A stretch of 54,531 nt of DNA from a virus. Taxonomy: Duplodnaviria; Caudoviricetes. The position numbers and the translations under genes were made by a program. A model generated the notes under the pieces. It worked only from the letters and a program-made list of their open reading frames with translations. It ran no database searches and was not told the DNA's origin. Positions within the stretch are counted from its first letter, which is position 1. Every line of letters starts with the position of its first letter. The DNA is taken from positions 1-54,531 of IMG/VR virus record IMGVR_UViG_3300037042_003862. The stretch is one strand, 5' to 3'. Of this stretch, positions 3,852-24,177 are shown one piece after another.

Positions 3852-4247
3852 ATGACGATCCAACTGAACCACCTCCACTTCCAAGAGTTCCTGCGAGGAT
3901 ACCGCGAGGGCCTCCGAGCCTACAACACGATGGTCGAAACGGAGGGCGGTGAGCTGGAGTCCACGCCAGACATCCCCGACCAGCCCCTGGGGCTGGGCTT
4001 GACGATGGCCACGGCGAGGGAGGCCCAGGACTTCATGGCCGGCAACGTTCGGGACCTCGACCGATTCTGCCACGAGTTCGGCGAGAGCTACCGTCGCGTG
4101 GGCCTGCTGTTCGCTCTGAACAAGAACGGCCACGGCGCTGGGTTCCAGAACTACAACGGCGAGGCCGCTCGGGCCCTGCGCTCGGCCGCCAAGACCTACG
4201 GTGCGACCACGCTCCTGGTCTCCGGAGGAGTCCTGGTGAGTCTCTGA
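3852..4247 (+). CDS. Hypothetical phage protein (NGHGAGF motif)
   Basis: GLLFALNKNGHGAGF resembles the GHD.WLTRNGHGAGFW motif of a common phage hypothetical family. Confidence 0.75.
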   Translation: MTIQLNHLHFQEFLRGYREGLRAYNTMVETEGGELESTPDIPDQPLGLGLTMATAREAQDFMAGNVRDLDRFCHEFGESYRRVGLLFALNKNGHGAGFQNYNGEAARALRSAAKTYGATTLLVSGGVLVSL

Positions 4248-9284: not shown

Positions 9285-9686
9285 ATGCAGACGTTCCTAC
9301 CCCTTGCGGACTTTGAGGCAACTGCGCTCATCCTCGACTGGCGCCGCCTGGGGAAGCAGCGGGTTGAGGCCCTCCAGATCCTCCGGACCCTCTCCGGAGC
9401 CTCCAAGGGCTGGGCCAACCACCCGGCCGTGGTCATGTGGCGGGGCCACCCCCTGGCCCTCCAGGCCTACCAGGACGCCATGGTGCGGGAGTGGGTCCGC
9501 CGGGGCTACCGCAACACCATAGAACTGGCGGGCGTCCACATCTCACCCACCGACCTCCCGCCCTGGTTCGGCGACCCGGCATTCCACGCGAGTCACCGGA
9601 GCAACCTACTGCGCAAGGATGCGGCGCACTACGGCCGGTTTGGGTGGGCCGAGCCGCCCGACCTCCCCTACATCTGGCCCACTTGA
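9285..9686 (+). CDS. Pyrimidine-dimer DNA glycosylase-like protein (MSMEG_6728/DenV-related)
   Basis: MQTFLP...LD.RRLGKQRVE..QIL...GW.NHPAV.MWRG...H.SHRSNLLRKD..HY...LPY.WP. Confidence 0.85.
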   Translation: MQTFLPLADFEATALILDWRRLGKQRVEALQILRTLSGASKGWANHPAVVMWRGHPLALQAYQDAMVREWVRRGYRNTIELAGVHISPTDLPPWFGDPAFHASHRSNLLRKDAAHYGRFGWAEPPDLPYIWPT

Positions 9687-10252
9687 CGGAGGCGGCGGAG
9701 GATCCGGATGGCGTGCCCGGCCTGGTGGTATGCGTCATCCAGGGCGTCGTGAGCCACCCCCACCCGGAGGGGCTCCTCCACCGCCAGGGCCTCGCCCACG
9801 ACCTTGCGCAGGGTCCTGAAGTCCCGCTCCCGGCTGTATCGTGGTAGGGCGTCCACATCCACATCATTGCGAGTGAAGGCCTGCCTCAGCAACCTGATGT
9901 CGAAGCTCGGGGAGTTCGCCCACAGCGCCACGGTCTTGCCCTGGGCCAACCAAGCCGCGAGGTCCGAGAAGGCAACAACGTGATCAACTCGCTCCGGGTC
10001 GCAGAGGACTCGTCGCTGAGCATCCGGAGATTGCTCAAACCACCAAGTGAGCGTTCCCTCCTCGATGCGGCCGAACGAGAAGTCATCCGGCTTGATTCGG
10101 ATGGAACTCCGAAACGAGCCCTCTGGGGAGCTGATCAGCCCCGCCTCTCCCTCATCCGGCCAGAACCTCACGGCTCCAATCTGGATGATGGCGGCATCGT
10201 CTCCAACGCCGAGGGTCTCAAGGTCGATCATCACGTGCGCGTCTGGTATCAT
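9668..10252 (-). CDS. DEDDh 3'-5' exonuclease (Rv2179c/RNase AS-like)
   Basis: HVMIDLETLG, WAN.PSFD, RDFRTL, HDALDDAYHQA. Confidence 0.85.
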   Translation of the reverse strand: MIPDAHVMIDLETLGVGDDAAIIQIGAVRFWPDEGEAGLISSPEGSFRSSIRIKPDDFSFGRIEEGTLTWWFEQSPDAQRRVLCDPERVDHVVAFSDLAAWLAQGKTVALWANSPSFDIRLLRQAFTRNDVDVDALPRYSRERDFRTLRKVVGEALAVEEPLRVGVAHDALDDAYHQAGHAIRILRRLRQVGQM

Positions 10253-10497
10253 GGAGCTGGAACCTTAACACTGGACTTGGACATCGGATAGACGACAATG
10301 CCGCCCTTGGGGCCGAGCTTCAACGCAACAGAGCGGGTCGCCAAGTTCTGGTCGATCACCAGAACCGGGTCCCATCTCCAACCTGGGTGGGTGATCCAGT
10401 CTCCGTTCTGGATGGAGATGTCATGCATCTCGCGTCCGCAAAGCCAATGACCGAGTCGGTTCGTCCACATCTGAAGCCATAAGGGTCGGAGGTTCAT
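10249..10497 (-). CDS. Hypothetical protein
   Basis: Start moved to MNLRPLW (ATGA overlap). Confidence 0.6.
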   Translation of the reverse strand: MNLRPLWLQMWTNRLGHWLCGREMHDISIQNGDWITHPGWRWDPVLVIDQNLATRSVALKLGPKGGIVVYPMSKSSVKVPAP

Positions 10498-10892
10498 GGT
10501 AGCCAAGCCGCCACAACAGCAAGCTCCTCCTCCGTCCACGGCGTGCGCCGTCCGCTGCTTGACGTCATCTTAACAAACCCCATTCGGAGGAGTTCATTGG
10601 TCAACCAACGTTGTTCGCGCTCGCTCCGGATGTCTCCAAGCACGCGGCCGAACTTGTCCAGGGTGTGAGACCGGAGGGTCAGCTCGGCTCCGTCGAGGAA
10701 CCCCTTTTGAACCCAACTGCCCACAACGACTGCTGCGGCCTTGCCCGGCCCTCGCATCTCCGGGGCGTCCACACCGTTGAGGCGGACATACACCTGTCGG
10801 CTGATGTGAAAGCCGAGGTCAACCACACAGCGGATCGTGTCACCGTCGATTGCGACGGCCTCCAGGATCGGAAAGTTGAACACACGGCTCAA
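10494..10892 (-). CDS. Thermonuclease (SNase) family protein
   Basis: IDGDTI...DLGF...VRL.GVDAPE...DKFGRVLG; start TTG 10892 or GTG 10883. Confidence 0.85.
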   Translation of the reverse strand: MSRVFNFPILEAVAIDGDTIRCVVDLGFHISRQVYVRLNGVDAPEMRGPGKAAAVVVGSWVQKGFLDGAELTLRSHTLDKFGRVLGDIRSEREQRWLTNELLRMGFVKMTSSSGRRTPWTEEELAVVAAWLP

Positions 10893-10956
10893 GGCAGCAC
10901 CTCGCGGAGTGCGCGCAGGTAGGACTGTCCGATGAGATCGCGTAACTCGGCGGGGC

Positions 10957-11181
10957 TCACGGCTTCTGCTCCTTGCCGTCGATGCCCGCCATCTCGGCGC
11001 GGAGGGCACGCTTCGTGCCCGCCAAAGCGATCATGTCAGCGGTGCAGCTATCCTCGCTGTCCATCGCATCGTCCGCCGCAATCCACCGCCGCACGGCTGC
11101 GCGGAGGGAGAGGAGGTCGGACATTACGACGAGCGGATAGTCCCACGGGTCAACCTGTTCGTCGTGCAGTTGCTGCGTCAC
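10957..11181 (-). CDS. Hypothetical protein, paralog of 11441..11683
   Basis: GTG in GTGA overlap; SDLL.LRA.VR....DD...ALRA.M..I shared. Confidence 0.6.
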   Translation of the reverse strand: MTQQLHDEQVDPWDYPLVVMSDLLSLRAAVRRWIAADDAMDSEDSCTADMIALAGTKRALRAEMAGIDGKEQKP

Positions 11182-11683: not shown

Positions 11684-12153
11684 GCCGGGTTCTCGTTGCG
11701 CAGGCCCTGCCTCATCAGGTCCGCCGCTAGGTGGATTTCACTGCGGTGGATCCGAAACACGTTGGGGGTCTCAGACGGGCAGGCTATGGCCTCGCGACAC
11801 CAGTTTGCTATAGCTGCCTGGGTCAGAGGAGCGGACGGGTAGGCCATCTGTGGGGACTTCTGAGGGGCCCCACGCAACCTACCCAGCTCAGCTCTCAGCT
11901 CCAGAGCTGTTGAAACAAGGCTCTCGTTGGGCGGAACCTGAAGCACCTCCCGGACCTCGCGCAGGGTCATCTCTGCCGCCCGGAGACGAGCATTGACCGC
12001 ATCCGTGGTCAACAACTCGTCCCCTGGGAGGGAGTCCAGCTCAACTCGCTCAAACGTGCGCCCGATCTCCTGGGCGATACGCTCCGCGCTGTCTGCGTCG
12101 GTGACGACATGATACCGGAGAATGCCGGCAATGATGACGTTGTTGTCATTCAT
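11680..12153 (-). CDS. Hypothetical protein
   Basis: 157 aa, GAAGGA before ATG. Confidence 0.7.
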   Translation of the reverse strand: MNDNNVIIAGILRYHVVTDADSAERIAQEIGRTFERVELDSLPGDELLTTDAVNARLRAAEMTLREVREVLQVPPNESLVSTALELRAELGRLRGAPQKSPQMAYPSAPLTQAAIANWCREAIACPSETPNVFRIHRSEIHLAADLMRQGLRNENPA

Positions 12154-12199
12154 GATCCTTCCAACTCAAACATTTGCCTGTAGGGGTGCTTGTAGCCCT

Positions 12200-12403
12200 T
12201 CATGACTTCAGCGCCAGCATCGTCAGCAACCAGCACGCTGAGAGCACGAGGCAGACCACGACCACCACCCAGCGTTCGCGTCGAGCGGCACGCTTCAGTC
12301 GGTCCGGGCAGCTGACGAACGGAGCACCGCCGTAGCCGATGCCGCAGTCAACACATCCGTCGTAGTCGGGGTTGAACCTGTGTCCTGAGTAGTGCTGATC
12401 CAT
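12200..12403 (-). CDS. Small membrane protein with Cys motif
   Basis: Start moved to MDQHY; H...CVDC...C then a C-terminal hydrophobic helix. Confidence 0.55.
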   Translation of the reverse strand: MDQHYSGHRFNPDYDGCVDCGIGYGGAPFVSCPDRLKRAARRERWVVVVVCLVLSACWLLTMLALKS

Positions 12404-12415
12404 GATAGGGAAGTA

Positions 12416-12755
12416 ACCTCTGGGCCGACTCGGGAAGGGTGCTGTCAGTCGATTTCTGCGCCGGTCAGAACGCACCCAGAGGTCTTGTTAGAGAAAATGC
12501 TGCCCTCGGCGACCATCCATGCGGGACGCCCTCACAGCGTCCGTCTCTCTGTCTCAGTCTATCCCTTTACCAAGATCACCATGCATTCACAAACTGACTT
12601 TCCGCCGAGGGCAGCAAGAACAGAAAGGCCAGACAAAAGATGCGGGAGCCTCTAACCGATGAAAGCCCTCGCGACATTCCAGCCGAATACGAAAGACAGC
12701 GACAAAGACAGCCCGAGCCGTTTCTATTGGATGAAAGCCCGGGCAACATTCGCTG
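12416..12755 (-). ncRNA. Cluster of structured RNA modules, candidate Y RNAs
   Basis: Four stem-closed modules (12697-12755, 12627-12684, 12498-12616, 12416-12483) directly downstream of Ro60; G-U pairs favour the minus strand in the first three. Confidence 0.65.
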
Positions 12756-12814
12756 AGTGGTGCTGTCGCAGTCCGAAGGGGCGACCGTTTCGGACTCCGA
12801 CGGCACTGAGAAGT

Positions 12815-14317
12815 CTACCCCGAGAATGCTGAGACGGTCGAGGCCCAGTCTCGCTTTTCCAGCCAGCAAGAGATTGCTTTGAATACGGCATCGCTGAAAC
12901 CACCAACCCTCAGCACGTCGGGTTGCGCCGACAGCGTGTCCGTGGCGTTGGGCTCGATGTTGAGCCGAACCTGCTTCACCCCCGGGTTGATGCGGCGAAT
13001 CTCCCTCCAGTGAACGTCGGAGGCTCCGGCATACTCCATCCAGCTCATGTTGTCGCTGATCATGATGAGTTGGTTGAACTCGACTCGATTTGAGACGAGG
13101 TGCCTCAGAACAGAGTCTGCGTCCGTCCCCCCGAGGGGCCGGGGGAACCCGGCCATCAGAGTCGGGACGCTGTCTAGGGGGTTGAGGGCATGCTCGACAC
13201 AACTGTCGTTGAAGACGAGGACCTGGGTGTTGGTCGGGTTGCGCTTCACGAGGGCCGCCGCGAACAGCGCCGCCACGTCGCTACAGGTCATGACGGACTT
13301 CCCTACCGCGCTCGTCATCGAGCCCGAGATGTCGAGGGCCACGACCGTCTTGCCTGGGAACACCGGAACGTTCTGCGTGGAGATGTCTAGGGCCTCCTGG
13401 ACAGCGATCTTCACCGCCATCGGGACCTCGGAGTTGTCCTTGGCGGCCAGGAAGGTCGCCAGGATCTGGTAGGGGAACTGTCGGGACCTCCGCACCAGAG
13501 CCTCGTCGCAGAGCTTGCGGGTGATGAGGCTGGTGAGGGAGATGTCCTTGAACAGGCCGTGGCGAGCGAACGTGTTGAGGTTCATCCGGATGAACTGCCA
13601 GCCGCCTCGCTCGGCGACGATCCGCCACTGCGCCGGAGTCATCTGGACGCTGTCGATCATGTTGAACGGAACGTCCGGCGGATCGCCCACAGGGTTCTCG
13701 CGGAAGGCCAGTGTCTGGCGCACCACCTCCGGCAGGACCTCGGGGGTGGGCTTGCCGCAGAGGAGCTTGAACAGGCCCTCCCTCTCCGGACCTCCGGCCT
13801 TGGGCGACGGATGCGACAGGCGGAGAACGTCGGCCAAGCTCGGGTTCTTGGCGATGCTCTGTGTCCAGAGGTAGTCGTTGGTTTGCTTCGCCAACCAGTT
13901 GTTGATCAGCCGCTTGCCGGCCGTGCCGAGGCTCTTGCGCCCGAGCTTCCCCGAGCGGACCGCCTGGACGAAGTTGGACAACATCTTCACGTTGTCGATG
14001 ATCTTGTCGAACACCGGCTGCGTGATCACCGGGCTGCGCTTGCCGAACAGGTATGCGGCGAGAACGGCCGGAGAGTCCTTCATGAACCCCGCGTGCCGAG
14101 CGTAGATGGCCACCTGAGCAACGAAGTTGTCTGGGCAGAGACGGGCGGCCTCCAAGAGCTGATCGAGCTGAGTCTCAGCCTTGGTGTAGAAGGTGTCCTG
14201 AAACATCCCAGTCACAGCAAGCTGAGCCAGGGCGTCCTTCGGAGAGTAGGAGTATGCTGCTCCGCCGGCAGCGTTGTTGGTATCCGGCGAGTTGCCGGCA
14301 AATAGGTCGAGGTTCAT
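12815..14317 (-). CDS. rsr: Ro60/Rsr-like TROVE-vWA RNA-binding protein
   Basis: N.AGG.AY, LAQLA.TG...TFY, MKD.PA.L.A.L, GRKSLG, RMNLNTFARHG, FPYQ, vWA MIDAS DISGSM, GGTD, ISDN.SW. Confidence 0.92.
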   Translation of the reverse strand: MNLDLFAGNSPDTNNAAGGAAYSYSPKDALAQLAVTGMFQDTFYTKAETQLDQLLEAARLCPDNFVAQVAIYARHAGFMKDSPAVLAAYLFGKRSPVITQPVFDKIIDNVKMLSNFVQAVRSGKLGRKSLGTAGKRLINNWLAKQTNDYLWTQSIAKNPSLADVLRLSHPSPKAGGPEREGLFKLLCGKPTPEVLPEVVRQTLAFRENPVGDPPDVPFNMIDSVQMTPAQWRIVAERGGWQFIRMNLNTFARHGLFKDISLTSLITRKLCDEALVRRSRQFPYQILATFLAAKDNSEVPMAVKIAVQEALDISTQNVPVFPGKTVVALDISGSMTSAVGKSVMTCSDVAALFAAALVKRNPTNTQVLVFNDSCVEHALNPLDSVPTLMAGFPRPLGGTDADSVLRHLVSNRVEFNQLIMISDNMSWMEYAGASDVHWREIRRINPGVKQVRLNIEPNATDTLSAQPDVLRVGGFSDAVFKAISCWLEKRDWASTVSAFSG

Positions 14318-14592
14318 AGTTGGTTGTAGAAGGTTCTGTTGACGTTCACTCGTTGAGTTGCTTCATCCCCGTATCGGCGGAAGGCACACACGACATCGGC
14401 GTGCGCTACGGGGTAGGGGAGCAGGGTAGCTGCGTGAGACGGGTGCTTGTAGATGGCCTGGACCCATTCGTTGATCTCGTCCGGGTCGGTCTCTCCAAGC
14501 TCCTCAGCAATAGCCATGGCGCGGTCCGATGCTGAGACGTTGTAGTTGTAGAGCGCGATCACGGTCGCAGCAACGAAAGGGTCCCAGGTCAC
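14314..14592 (-). CDS. Hypothetical protein
   Basis: 92 aa, coupled to Ro60 by ATGA overlap. Confidence 0.65.
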   Translation of the reverse strand: MTWDPFVAATVIALYNYNVSASDRAMAIAEELGETDPDEINEWVQAIYKHPSHAATLLPYPVAHADVVCAFRRYGDEATQRVNVNRTFYNQL

Positions 14593-14900
14593 TTCGGCCT
14601 CCGGTCCATGATGTTGTGGATGGCACCCCCGATCTGGGCCTCGTTCTGGAGGCCGCGCAGCGCCTGGGCTACCGCCCCGAGAGCCTGGGACGCCATCCCC
14701 AACTCCTGGGCCGCCTTCTCAAAGTGCCGGCTGGAGGCCATGAGCCCACAGGGAGGGCAGGGCTGGAGGGACCTGGTCTTGTCGGAATACTCCGTCATCA
14801 CGCAGCCGCAGGGGCGGTTCTCGTTGCTGGTGACGAGGCGGACGGAACTCGGTTGTTGTTTTTCGGTCATGATGCTTTCTCTCGGGGGAGGGGGGTTCAT
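14589..14900 (-). CDS. Hypothetical protein with Cys motifs
   Basis: PCGC and PCPPCG; start may be MTEKQ at 14870. Confidence 0.6.
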   Translation of the reverse strand: MNPPPPRESIMTEKQQPSSVRLVTSNENRPCGCVMTEYSDKTRSLQPCPPCGLMASSRHFEKAAQELGMASQALGAVAQALRGLQNEAQIGGAIHNIMDRRPK

Positions 14901-22288: not shown

Positions 22289-24177
22289 TACTCAATCTCA
22301 CCCCAACTTGGGCCCACCTCAACGTCCACGCGGCTCGGGACGCTGAGAGGAACAACCGTGCGCATGATCTCAGCAAGGCCCTCGGCCTGCTGTCTGTCGG
22401 TGACGCTGAGGTCCAGCTCATCGTGGACCTGGAGCTGAATCTCGTATCCAGCAGCGTCTCCAGCAACCATTGCGGCCTTGGTCTGGTCACCGCTGCCGCC
22501 CTGGATCAGGCGGTTGAGGGCCTTGTGTGTCCAGTCGTAGCCCTTCCCATCCTCGTTCTTGGGGAACCTACAACGACGGCCCAGGACGGTCTTGAGGTAG
22601 CCCTTTGAGTTGGCCACGTTTGAGCACCGCTGTGCAAGCTCCTTGACGTAGGGGGCTCGCCTCTCAAACTGCTCAATGATGGCCTTCCCCTCCGGCCCAG
22701 CCACCTCGATCATCCGCCCGTGGGTTGGGCTCATGATCCACTCAGTGGGGAGGCCGCAGTCCTTCGCCATCTTGGCCGCCCCCATCCCGTAGCACTTACC
22801 CAGGAACAGGTTTTTGGCCTGCTTCCTCGGGAGCCCCGTCAGCTCCGCCATCATCTGATGGTTGTCTGTCAAGGGGTCATCTCGGTATCGCTGAGCAGCG
22901 GACATGGCCCCGCGACAGTGCGTCATCTCCGCGTAGTGGGTCAGGAGCCGAGGCTCCTGCTGACTGTAGTCGAGACATGCCCAGAGCTTCCCCTCGTCCG
23001 GGATGAAGATGCGGCGCCACATGGGCCCAACCTCCTCGTCCCGAGCCGGTTGCTGCTGCATGTTCGGGTGCTCTCCGCTGAGCCGACCGTATGCCGCCCC
23101 TCCCAGAGAGCCGTCATCCTTCTCCTTTCGGAGCTGGTTGAGCACACCATGGATCCGGTCTCCAATCGCATAGTCACGGATGGACTGGACAAAGGTAGTC
23201 CGGATCTTGTTGACCTTGCGCGCACGGGCAAGGGCGTCAGCGACTGGATGCTTGACCTCGGCGAGGAACTCCGCGGTGATCGAGGGCGCACCCTTCGCCG
23301 TAGTGGGGGGAGTGATCCCGATAGCCTTCAGAGGCTTGGACATGACTTCGGCTGACCAGACATCACCTACCGCGATGTTGACGCTTGTCAGTTCGGCCAC
23401 AATCGCCAGGGCCTGAGCCTCCTGAGCTAGGCTCCATGACTCGATGGCGTCGAGCCTCTCGTGGCTAAACCGGACGCCACGCCGTCGCACCTTCAGAAGG
23501 ACGGGCAGCAGCTTCGACTCTAGGTTGTAGATGTCCCAGAGGTCCTGCTCCTCAATCAGCTTCTCCTGGCGCCGGAGGATCTTGAGGGGCAGGAACACGT
23601 CCTGGATTGCGTATTCAGCAACAAACTTGGCAGGGAGCTTCCAGATGTGCTGAGCCGCGTTGCCCTTCAAGCCGTAGGCCGCAACAGCCTCGCTCAGCAC
23701 TGACTTGTCCTTGCCAGGCATCTTGTAACGCTTGGCGATGGCGTCCAGGTTGTAGGTATCCTGAAGCTCGTCAAGGAGCGGCTCAGCAACCTGCACATCG
23801 CGAACCCAGGAGGCCGAGCTGTAGTGGACTCCGACCTCGGCAAGGTAGTCGAGGTCATACGTTGCGTTGGTCGCGACAATCGTGCCCTTGTAGTTGCGAG
23901 CCTGGTCGCGGAGGTAGGCCAGCGCGTGGTCGCGGTCAACGTTGCCGCCGCCCTCATGAGCAATCGGGAGGTAGAACGCCGGACCATCCTCGATCGCGAA
24001 CGCTACGCCGGCAATGAACCCGCCTCGACGAACTCCGGGCCCAAGCTCCCTCAGCTTGGGGTCGCAGGTCTCGATGTCGACAGCTACCCTCTGGGCAGCT
24101 GACCAGCTCGGCAGCTCGCTGATCTTCGGAGCAACCCAGTCGGACTTGGGCAGGAACAACGCACCTTGGAGAGCCAT
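22288..24177 (-). CDS. polA: DNA polymerase family A with 3'-5' exonuclease
   Basis: Exo I VDIET; motif A LDYSQQEPR; motif B RKQAKNLFLGKCYGMG; motif C VHDEL. Confidence 0.95.
   Translation of the reverse strand: MALQGALFLPKSDWVAPKISELPSWSAAQRVAVDIETCDPKLRELGPGVRRGGFIAGVAFAIEDGPAFYLPIAHEGGGNVDRDHALAYLRDQARNYKGTIVATNATYDLDYLAEVGVHYSSASWVRDVQVAEPLLDELQDTYNLDAIAKRYKMPGKDKSVLSEAVAAYGLKGNAAQHIWKLPAKFVAEYAIQDVFLPLKILRRQEKLIEEQDLWDIYNLESKLLPVLLKVRRRGVRFSHERLDAIESWSLAQEAQALAIVAELTSVNIAVGDVWSAEVMSKPLKAIGITPPTTAKGAPSITAEFLAEVKHPVADALARARKVNKIRTTFVQSIRDYAIGDRIHGVLNQLRKEKDDGSLGGAAYGRLSGEHPNMQQQPARDEEVGPMWRRIFIPDEGKLWACLDYSQQEPRLLTHYAEMTHCRGAMSAAQRYRDDPLTDNHQMMAELTGLPRKQAKNLFLGKCYGMGAAKMAKDCGLPTEWIMSPTHGRMIEVAGPEGKAIIEQFERRAPYVKELAQRCSNVANSKGYLKTVLGRRCRFPKNEDGKGYDWTHKALNRLIQGGSGDQTKAAMVAGDAAGYEIQLQVHDELDLSVTDRQQAEGLAEIMRTVVPLSVPSRVDVEVGPSWGEIE

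Follow-up and report, generated by a model that had tools for sequence, protein, structure and literature searches.

Two short tandem hairpin modules, A and B, lie directly downstream of a phage gene that encodes a Ro60 homologue, and they are very probably small Y RNAs of the YrlB type, retaining the Ro60-binding module shared with YrlA and carrying a short loop where YrlA has its tRNA-like effector domain. Y RNAs are obligate partners of Ro60, and work in bacteria has centred on the tRNA-mimicking YrlA. For A and B themselves, direct support comes from sequence and structure, from family membership according to an independent covariance model and from covariation of two helices across the family. 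The window, by which we mean the whole stretch of DNA analysed here, is the 54,531-bp virus record IMGVR_UViG_3300037042_003862 (completeness estimate 83%). The features discussed below are the following:

12815–14317, minus strand: Ro60/Rsr homologue, 500 aa (Pfam, PHROG, homologues, PDB alignments)
12760–12806, minus strand: interrupted 16-bp hairpin (fold −27.3 kcal/mol, z −3.67)
12697–12755, minus strand: module A, putative mini Y RNA of YrlB type, 59 nt (sequence, fold, model R2)
12627–12684, minus strand: module B, putative second mini Y RNA, 58 nt (sequence, fold, model R2)
12498–12616, minus strand: element C, 119-nt structure (inverted repeat, fold)

The record is of the tailed phage type, encoding a tape-measure protein, tail proteins, DNA polymerase, primase and helicases, and its minus strand carries nearly all genes. 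Read on that strand, 3′ of the Ro60 gene, the order is the hairpin (12806–12760), module A (12755–12697), module B (12684–12627) and element C (12616–12498). Module A shares its strand with the Ro60 gene, whose stop codon precedes it by 59 nt, and a spacer of 12 nt separates the two modules. A coding explanation of the region found no footing: the five ORFs overlapping or flanking the modules are without a Pfam family at E ≤ 0.01. When the module region was compared with the phage collection for near and for distant DNA relatives, no match emerged; a scan of viral contigs for the exact motif variant of A and B gave 0 matches, and protein-based locus searches, with a single Ro60 protein against viral contigs and with a Ro60 alignment against genome contigs, found none. 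Three DNA contig sets contained only pieces identical or near-identical to the record, with 0 sequence variants inside the modules, and as DNA sets they say nothing on module expression or covariation. Approximately 2–3 kb downstream of the Ro60 cassette, the minus strand also carries an endonuclease-like gene (PHROG 452, 10494–11009) and an exonuclease-like gene (PHROG 255, 9668–10252).

Judged by its translation, the 500-aa ORF at 12815–14317 is a Ro60 homologue. It matches Pfam vWA_Ro60 at 3.1e-11 and PHROG 850 (“RNA-binding protein”) at 1.6e-34, and its vWA part has a DxSxS (MIDAS-type) motif; the TROVE match is weak and below threshold (18.2 bits vs. a cut-off of 23). Among 8000 scored candidates, 2316 homologues were retained at E ≤ 0.001, many of which bear the source name 60 kDa SS-A/Ro. 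Full-length alignments were obtained with the Ro60 of phage phiLo (9l5y, E 6.8e-15) and with D. radiodurans Rsr (2nvo, E 7.7e-11), and further PDB matches were 9kop, 9nen and 1yvp.

Both modules lie on the minus strand where the preliminary description had placed them, and sequence and single folds bear out the layout it gave. In module A, the closing stem CAGCGA/UCGCUG is followed by an internal loop, AUGUU / UGUCUUUG, and by the inner stem GCCCGGGCU/GGCUCGGGC, beyond which come UUCAUC and a short loop. In module B, the closing stem is GGCUGGA/UCUGGCC, the internal loop AUGUC / AUCUUUUG and the inner stem GCGAGGGCU/GGCUCCCGC, the last with one A·C mismatch, and UUCAUC and a short loop follow as in A. 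Common to both are thus the closing stem, the internal loop with GAAUGU opposite UUUGUC, the GGG of the inner stem and UUCAUC. A 22-nt pattern that they share, GAATGTNGCNNGGGCTTTCATC, has two occurrences in the window, where 100 shuffles gave an expectation of 0.00. Folded singly, A and B each recover the proposed closing and inner stems, with an asymmetric internal loop between them and apical loops of 8–9 nt. For A, the folding energy is −25.5 kcal/mol (z −3.66), a value reached in 1 of 200 shuffles; for B it is −20.1 kcal/mol (z −0.84), reached in 31 of 200, so that module B is not set apart by folding energy alone. Between the two closing stems nearly all positions differ and pairing is kept, with two G·U pairs in B. 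The inner stem had been described as carrying compensatory differences: one such change is truly compensatory (C-G to G-C), whereas another position turns into the A·C mismatch in B.

The family to which A and B belong could be defined with sequences from elsewhere. A model built on 14 minis including A and B (R1) was used to gather and align 26 sequences from 15 other loci, none from the window, and these make up the independent model R2. Searched at E ≤ 10 on both strands of the 54,531 bases, R2 returned exactly two sites, which are A and B. Module A scores 27.2 bits (E 4.5e-5 over the whole window; E 5.8e-7 locally), and module B scores 18.6 bits (E 0.0094 over the whole window; E 1.2e-4 locally), a weak score. 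With filters off over 12150–12850, nothing beyond A and B rises above 4.4 bits. In a 14-sequence alignment including A and B, columns 3–6 pair with columns 71–74 with 0 broken pairs, which is the closing stem; MAFFT with RNAalifold recovered this stem alone, and the inner stem required a model-based alignment.

Current Rfam models are silent at this locus. No family reached its gathering score anywhere in the 54,531-nt window and ARAGORN found 0 tRNAs there, and at E ≤ 10 over 12100–13000 the YrlA and YrlB models had no match, the two matches obtained being irrelevant (E 5.9 and 9.5). The strong Rfam hit that had been named as removing the novelty did not appear in this search, and the earlier remark that no T-loop is visible agrees with the ARAGORN result and with the missing YrlA match down to E ≤ 10. 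Neither module reaches the YrlB (RF02565) gathering score of 97 bits.

The bacterial Ro60-binding motif is given as GNCGAAN0-1G, in a stem formed by the paired 5′ and 3′ ends (Chen 2014, PMC4201824). The stem itself is present in both modules, and the motif is not matched exactly by either (A, AGCGAAUG; B, CUGGAAUG); many accepted family members likewise deviate at the first G or read UGAAUG. The variants carried by A and B are rare: GAAUGU replaces GAAUGC in 3 of 198 short modules, and UUCAU replaces UACAU also in 3 of 198, both window modules being counted each time in a regex census that gives some false positives, such as plus-strand 23242–23393 of the window, which lies inside a coding region and lacks R2 support.

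The consensus of YrlA (Rfam RF02553) helps to place the modules. It begins with a 6-bp closing stem ending in GA/UC and an internal loop, AUGCu / aaAaAcUuG, and continues with a 7-bp inner stem with GG, a CUAc and then the tRNA-like domain. The first part of this consensus is present in A and B, as the consensus comparison and R2 both indicate (closing stem, AUGC / CUUG internal loop, inner stem and CUAC-type junction), so that each module can be read as the Ro60-binding module closed by a short loop. The effector domain of YrlA, made of T-arm, D-arm and acceptor-like hairpin, is absent from both.

A more specific relation is to YrlB. According to Chen 2014 (PMC4201824), YrlB is bound by Salmonella Rsr as a second Y RNA and was recovered by BLAST in S. 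enterica serovars only; the same paper gives at least one long-hairpin Y RNA beside the tRNA-like one in each species studied, and counts 355 putative YrlAs in 254 bacteria and 22 phages. The Salmonella operon is ordered rsr-yrlB-yrlA-rtcBA. Two short GenBank records with an enterobacterial-type rsr 3′ end (L156, OR851267.1; L157, OR845705.1) offered a direct comparison. In these records Rfam calls YrlB directly after the rsr fragment (105.5 bits, at positions 719–796 of L156), and YrlA comes next with 70.9 bits. Model R2, which contains no enterobacterial-type sequence, matches L156 at 725–790 with 33.1 bits (E 6.3e-7), and when aligned and folded this YrlB resolves into the same parts as A and B. 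Both records are labelled unverified, as Salmonella and Escherichia phages; their layout is that of the chromosomal Salmonella-type operon, and they may be host DNA.

Since R2 scores the window modules and an Rfam-defined YrlB alike, we place A and B in the YrlB type. The likeness extends to position (directly after the Ro60 gene, on its strand), to the 5′ motif, to a hairpin build with no tRNA-like domain and to the whole layout of closing stem, GAAUGC-type 5′ strand, inner stem with GGG, UACAUC, short apical part and UUUGUC-type 3′ strand. Modules A and B differ from YrlB in being shorter (58–59 nt vs. 78 model positions), in reading GAAUGU and UUCAUC, in forming a phage-encoded tandem pair with no adjoining YrlA and in being missed by the Rfam YrlB model at E ≤ 10. 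They are short and divergent members of the YrlB type and not a new class. The preliminary description had taken them for a minimal, non-YrlA class of Y RNA; Y-RNA-type modules tied to a Ro60 gene and lacking the YrlA tRNA-like domain are indeed what we find, but the claim of a new class gives way before the YrlA consensus layout and the R2 match to YrlB. The Rfam YrlB model is too narrow for distant members: among the loci scanned, it detected the enterobacterial-type records alone.

How far the short modules spread was followed along two routes. Ro60-relative loci were chosen by protein similarity (4 from viral contigs and 30 from metagenomes), and R1 found modules of ≤90 nt at E ≤ 1e-3 in 16 of 33 Ro60 sources chosen in this way, which answers the earlier call for a model search of Ro60 neighbourhoods. 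Separately, a mini-specific gapped pattern occurred in at least 120 genome stretches, with about 10 expected by chance by our own estimate; the phyla among the matches listed include Pseudomonadota, Planctomycetota, Verrucomicrobiota, Acidobacteriota and others. In the 80 genome loci listed, R2 made 295 matches at E ≤ 1e-3, and 69 of the 80 have a Ro60 homologue, frequencies that are biased by the picking of these loci with the mini-specific pattern. The best 150 of the 295 R2 matches include 91 of ≤90 nt, and lengths peak at 60–70 nt (59 of 150). Within the same 150, 79 of the 91 minis share a locus with a Ro60 match and all 79 also share its strand, and a T-arm motif accompanies 2 of the 91 short modules vs. 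48 of the 59 long ones. The 60–75 nt modules therewith appear as a discrete and widespread class near Ro60.

Covariation among homologs, the absence of which had been named as counting against the proposal, is found in both helices. Over 147 distinct sequences, 89.2% of cells are paired vs. 64.8% after shuffling (0 of 500 shuffles reach 89.2%) and 39.8–61.7% with partners slid, in an alignment (A5) that was fitted to the model and favours structure for that reason. In these sequences the covariation score is 0.646 vs. 0.093–0.183 with partners slid, and double changes occur in 12 of 15 pairs. Two covarying helices around a conserved internal loop, a length of approximately 58–90 nt and a place beside Ro60 define the short family as R2 delimits it, and A and B have all of these. 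We found no published description of a widespread YrlB-like family; short Y RNAs or phage loci may already be listed in the supplementary material of Chen 2014 (Tables S1 and S2, Fig. S4).

Among the Ro60-relative loci, short modules often come first in arrays that continue with YrlA-type modules. Such mixed arrays, found in other phage and bacterial loci (L005, L010, L014 and L020, for example), usually open behind Ro60 with a mini that has the layout of A and B; those arrays add modules with T- and D-arms, of which the window has none. The Ro60 of L005 is the closest among the loci retrieved, with 48% identity to that of the window; the nearest Ro60 proteins as such (P0002–P0012) range from 46 to 51% identity. 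Five modules follow it: the first is a 65-nt mini with the UUCAUC variant, and three later ones have GGTTCGA T-arms. Outside Ro60 the L005 phage is unrelated, with a match for 3 of 49 window ORFs, and the Ro60–Y cassette is common to otherwise unrelated phages. A history in which tRNA-like modules were lost from a related phage was considered and dropped, the L005 phage being no such relative. The window has mini modules only and no YrlA-type module anywhere in the record (83% complete). The phage-like loci L004 and L025 are likewise without a T-arm module, and there the modules lie upstream of Ro60. A and B, with 59 and 58 nt, rank with the shortest modules encountered, and their loops are very short.

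Some arrangements in other loci deserve mention for themselves. In L020, a 78-nt module (4116–4193) consists of the Ro60-binding stem and a T-arm-like hairpin only (GGTTCGAATCC), a layout with more than the mini has and less than a complete YrlA. tRNA genes are interleaved with Y RNA modules or follow them in L014 (4024–4588), L005 (4127–4837) and L009 (1549–1620), the order in L014 being mini, tRNA-Arg, module, tRNA-Met and YrlA; such interleaving suggests joint processing as polycistronic tRNA-like transcripts. Very large tandem arrays occur in some bacterial Ro60 loci (L140, L084, L086 and others), with up to about 10 modules within 8 kb by the regex census, and the array in L084 is backed by R2 matches.

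Phage-encoded hairpins beside a phage Ro60 gene have a published precedent. The Yrl1 and Yrl2 RNAs of Thermus phage phiLo are reported as hairpin Y-like RNAs that bind phiLo Ro60 in vitro, by EMSA and cryo-EM, and together with this protein also host PNPase (PMC12135203). The phiLo Ro60 is homologous to that of the window, and, compared by description, Yrl1 and Yrl2 resemble A and B in having a CGAA-type motif placed in the bulge that separates two stems; their position is upstream of the Ro60 gene, whereas A and B lie downstream. At E ≤ 10, R2 had no match in the Ro60 loci of phages phiLo or Mx1, from which we conclude that phage Y-like RNAs are not one sequence family.

By homology with YrlB and YrlA, we hypothesize that A and B would be transcribed with the phage Ro60 gene in a long leftward transcript. 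On the Ro60 strand no promoter-like or terminator-like site was found within 12000–14600, a stretch that includes the interval from the gene to the modules. Host RNases would then cut them out, trimming back to the closing stem, and the Ro60 ring of the phage would bind each at this stem and at the conserved internal loop (5′ GAAUGU, 3′ UUUGUC). YrlA is thought to tether Ro60 to a partner through its tRNA-like domain. Lacking an effector domain, A and B cannot tether Ro60 by that route, and they would more likely stabilise Ro60 or gate the access of other RNAs to it.

Other explanations share parts of this evidence. The same position directly behind the stop codon, the same lack of promoter-like and terminator-like sites and the further hairpin between the stop and module A would also suit a cis role, in which A and B are never released and act as 3′-UTR elements of the Ro60 mRNA, either autoregulatory Ro60-binding sites or 3′ protective structures. 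We regard this as improbable, since the same modules are found upstream of Ro60 in L004 and L025 and interleaved with tRNA genes in L014. A role as decoys is less probable still: A and B would take RNA surveillance away from the host, either by binding its Rsr or through competition with its YrlA, and RNAs without an effector domain would indeed occupy Ro60 without tethering a partner. The proposal that phiLo Ro60 and its RNAs engage host PNPase (PMC12135203) fits such an interplay, but A and B adjoin the phage’s own Ro60, just as bacterial minis adjoin theirs, and a host Rsr would have to be assumed.

The rare motif variants, the very short length (58 and 59 nt) and the mismatch in B could be taken as signs of decay, A and B then being non-functional remnants of YrlA that lost the tRNA-like domain. 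Against such decay, every conserved element and both helices are kept in both copies in spite of very different stems, and the short class is discrete and widespread instead of a scatter of deletions; we rank this explanation below the decoys and consider it very improbable. Hardly any credence is left for chance hairpins or a simple local duplication without RNA function. Module B alone folds no better than shuffled sequence, which is what chance would give, but the 22-nt pattern occurs twice where none is expected, R2 finds A and B only in the entire window, and the closing stems differ in sequence with pairing kept.

The reading of A and B as released YrlB-type Y RNAs can be carried further, into a joint picture that we offer as speculation and hold to be rather unlikely as a whole. 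The phage Ro60 would be served by effector-less Y RNAs only, A and B doing no more than gating or chaperoning the ring, or else competing for host Rsr; any tethering would fall to element C, as a new Y RNA bearing an effector that is not tRNA-like; and the core Y RNA common to bacteria and phages would be the ~60-nt mini instead of YrlA.

If A and B are YrlB-type Y RNAs, the locus would offer an uncluttered natural example of a Ro60 gene whose only companion is the Ro60-binding module in bare form, and the two modules would conveniently reduce to a minimal system the question of what an effector-less Y RNA is for, be it gating, stabilising or acting as a decoy. The comparison also shows Salmonella YrlB to be no enterobacterial oddity: it belongs to a widespread family of short Y RNAs missed by current Rfam models, and a model of the short family would improve the annotation of Ro60 loci in genomes and phages.

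Finally, two further structures flank the modules. Element C follows module B after about 10 nt. It has a perfect GC-rich closing stem of 14–15 bp, seen as an inverted repeat (I7) of 14 nt that is 100% complementary with the arms 91 nt apart, and it folds at −54.7 kcal/mol (z −4.28), an energy that 0 of 200 shuffles reached. On its 5′ side, near the 5′ stem, it carries GGAAAGUC, and a 17-nt stretch is 76% like the 3′ half of module B (direct repeat D2). It was tried as a third Y module and set aside: Rfam gave no match, R2 gave none even with filters off, and the MAFFT alignment to A and B was unconvincing. It may be a degenerate or different Y-like RNA.

The interrupted hairpin at 12760–12806 begins 9 nt past the Ro60 stop codon, and no U-tract follows it. 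As a Y module it was rejected, with 4.4 bits from R2; lying between the mRNA and the putative Y RNAs, it possibly serves processing or stability. Its stem contains AGUCCGAA, which recalls GGUCCGA, reportedly the metazoan Y RNA motif, and is probably either a coincidence or a processing site.
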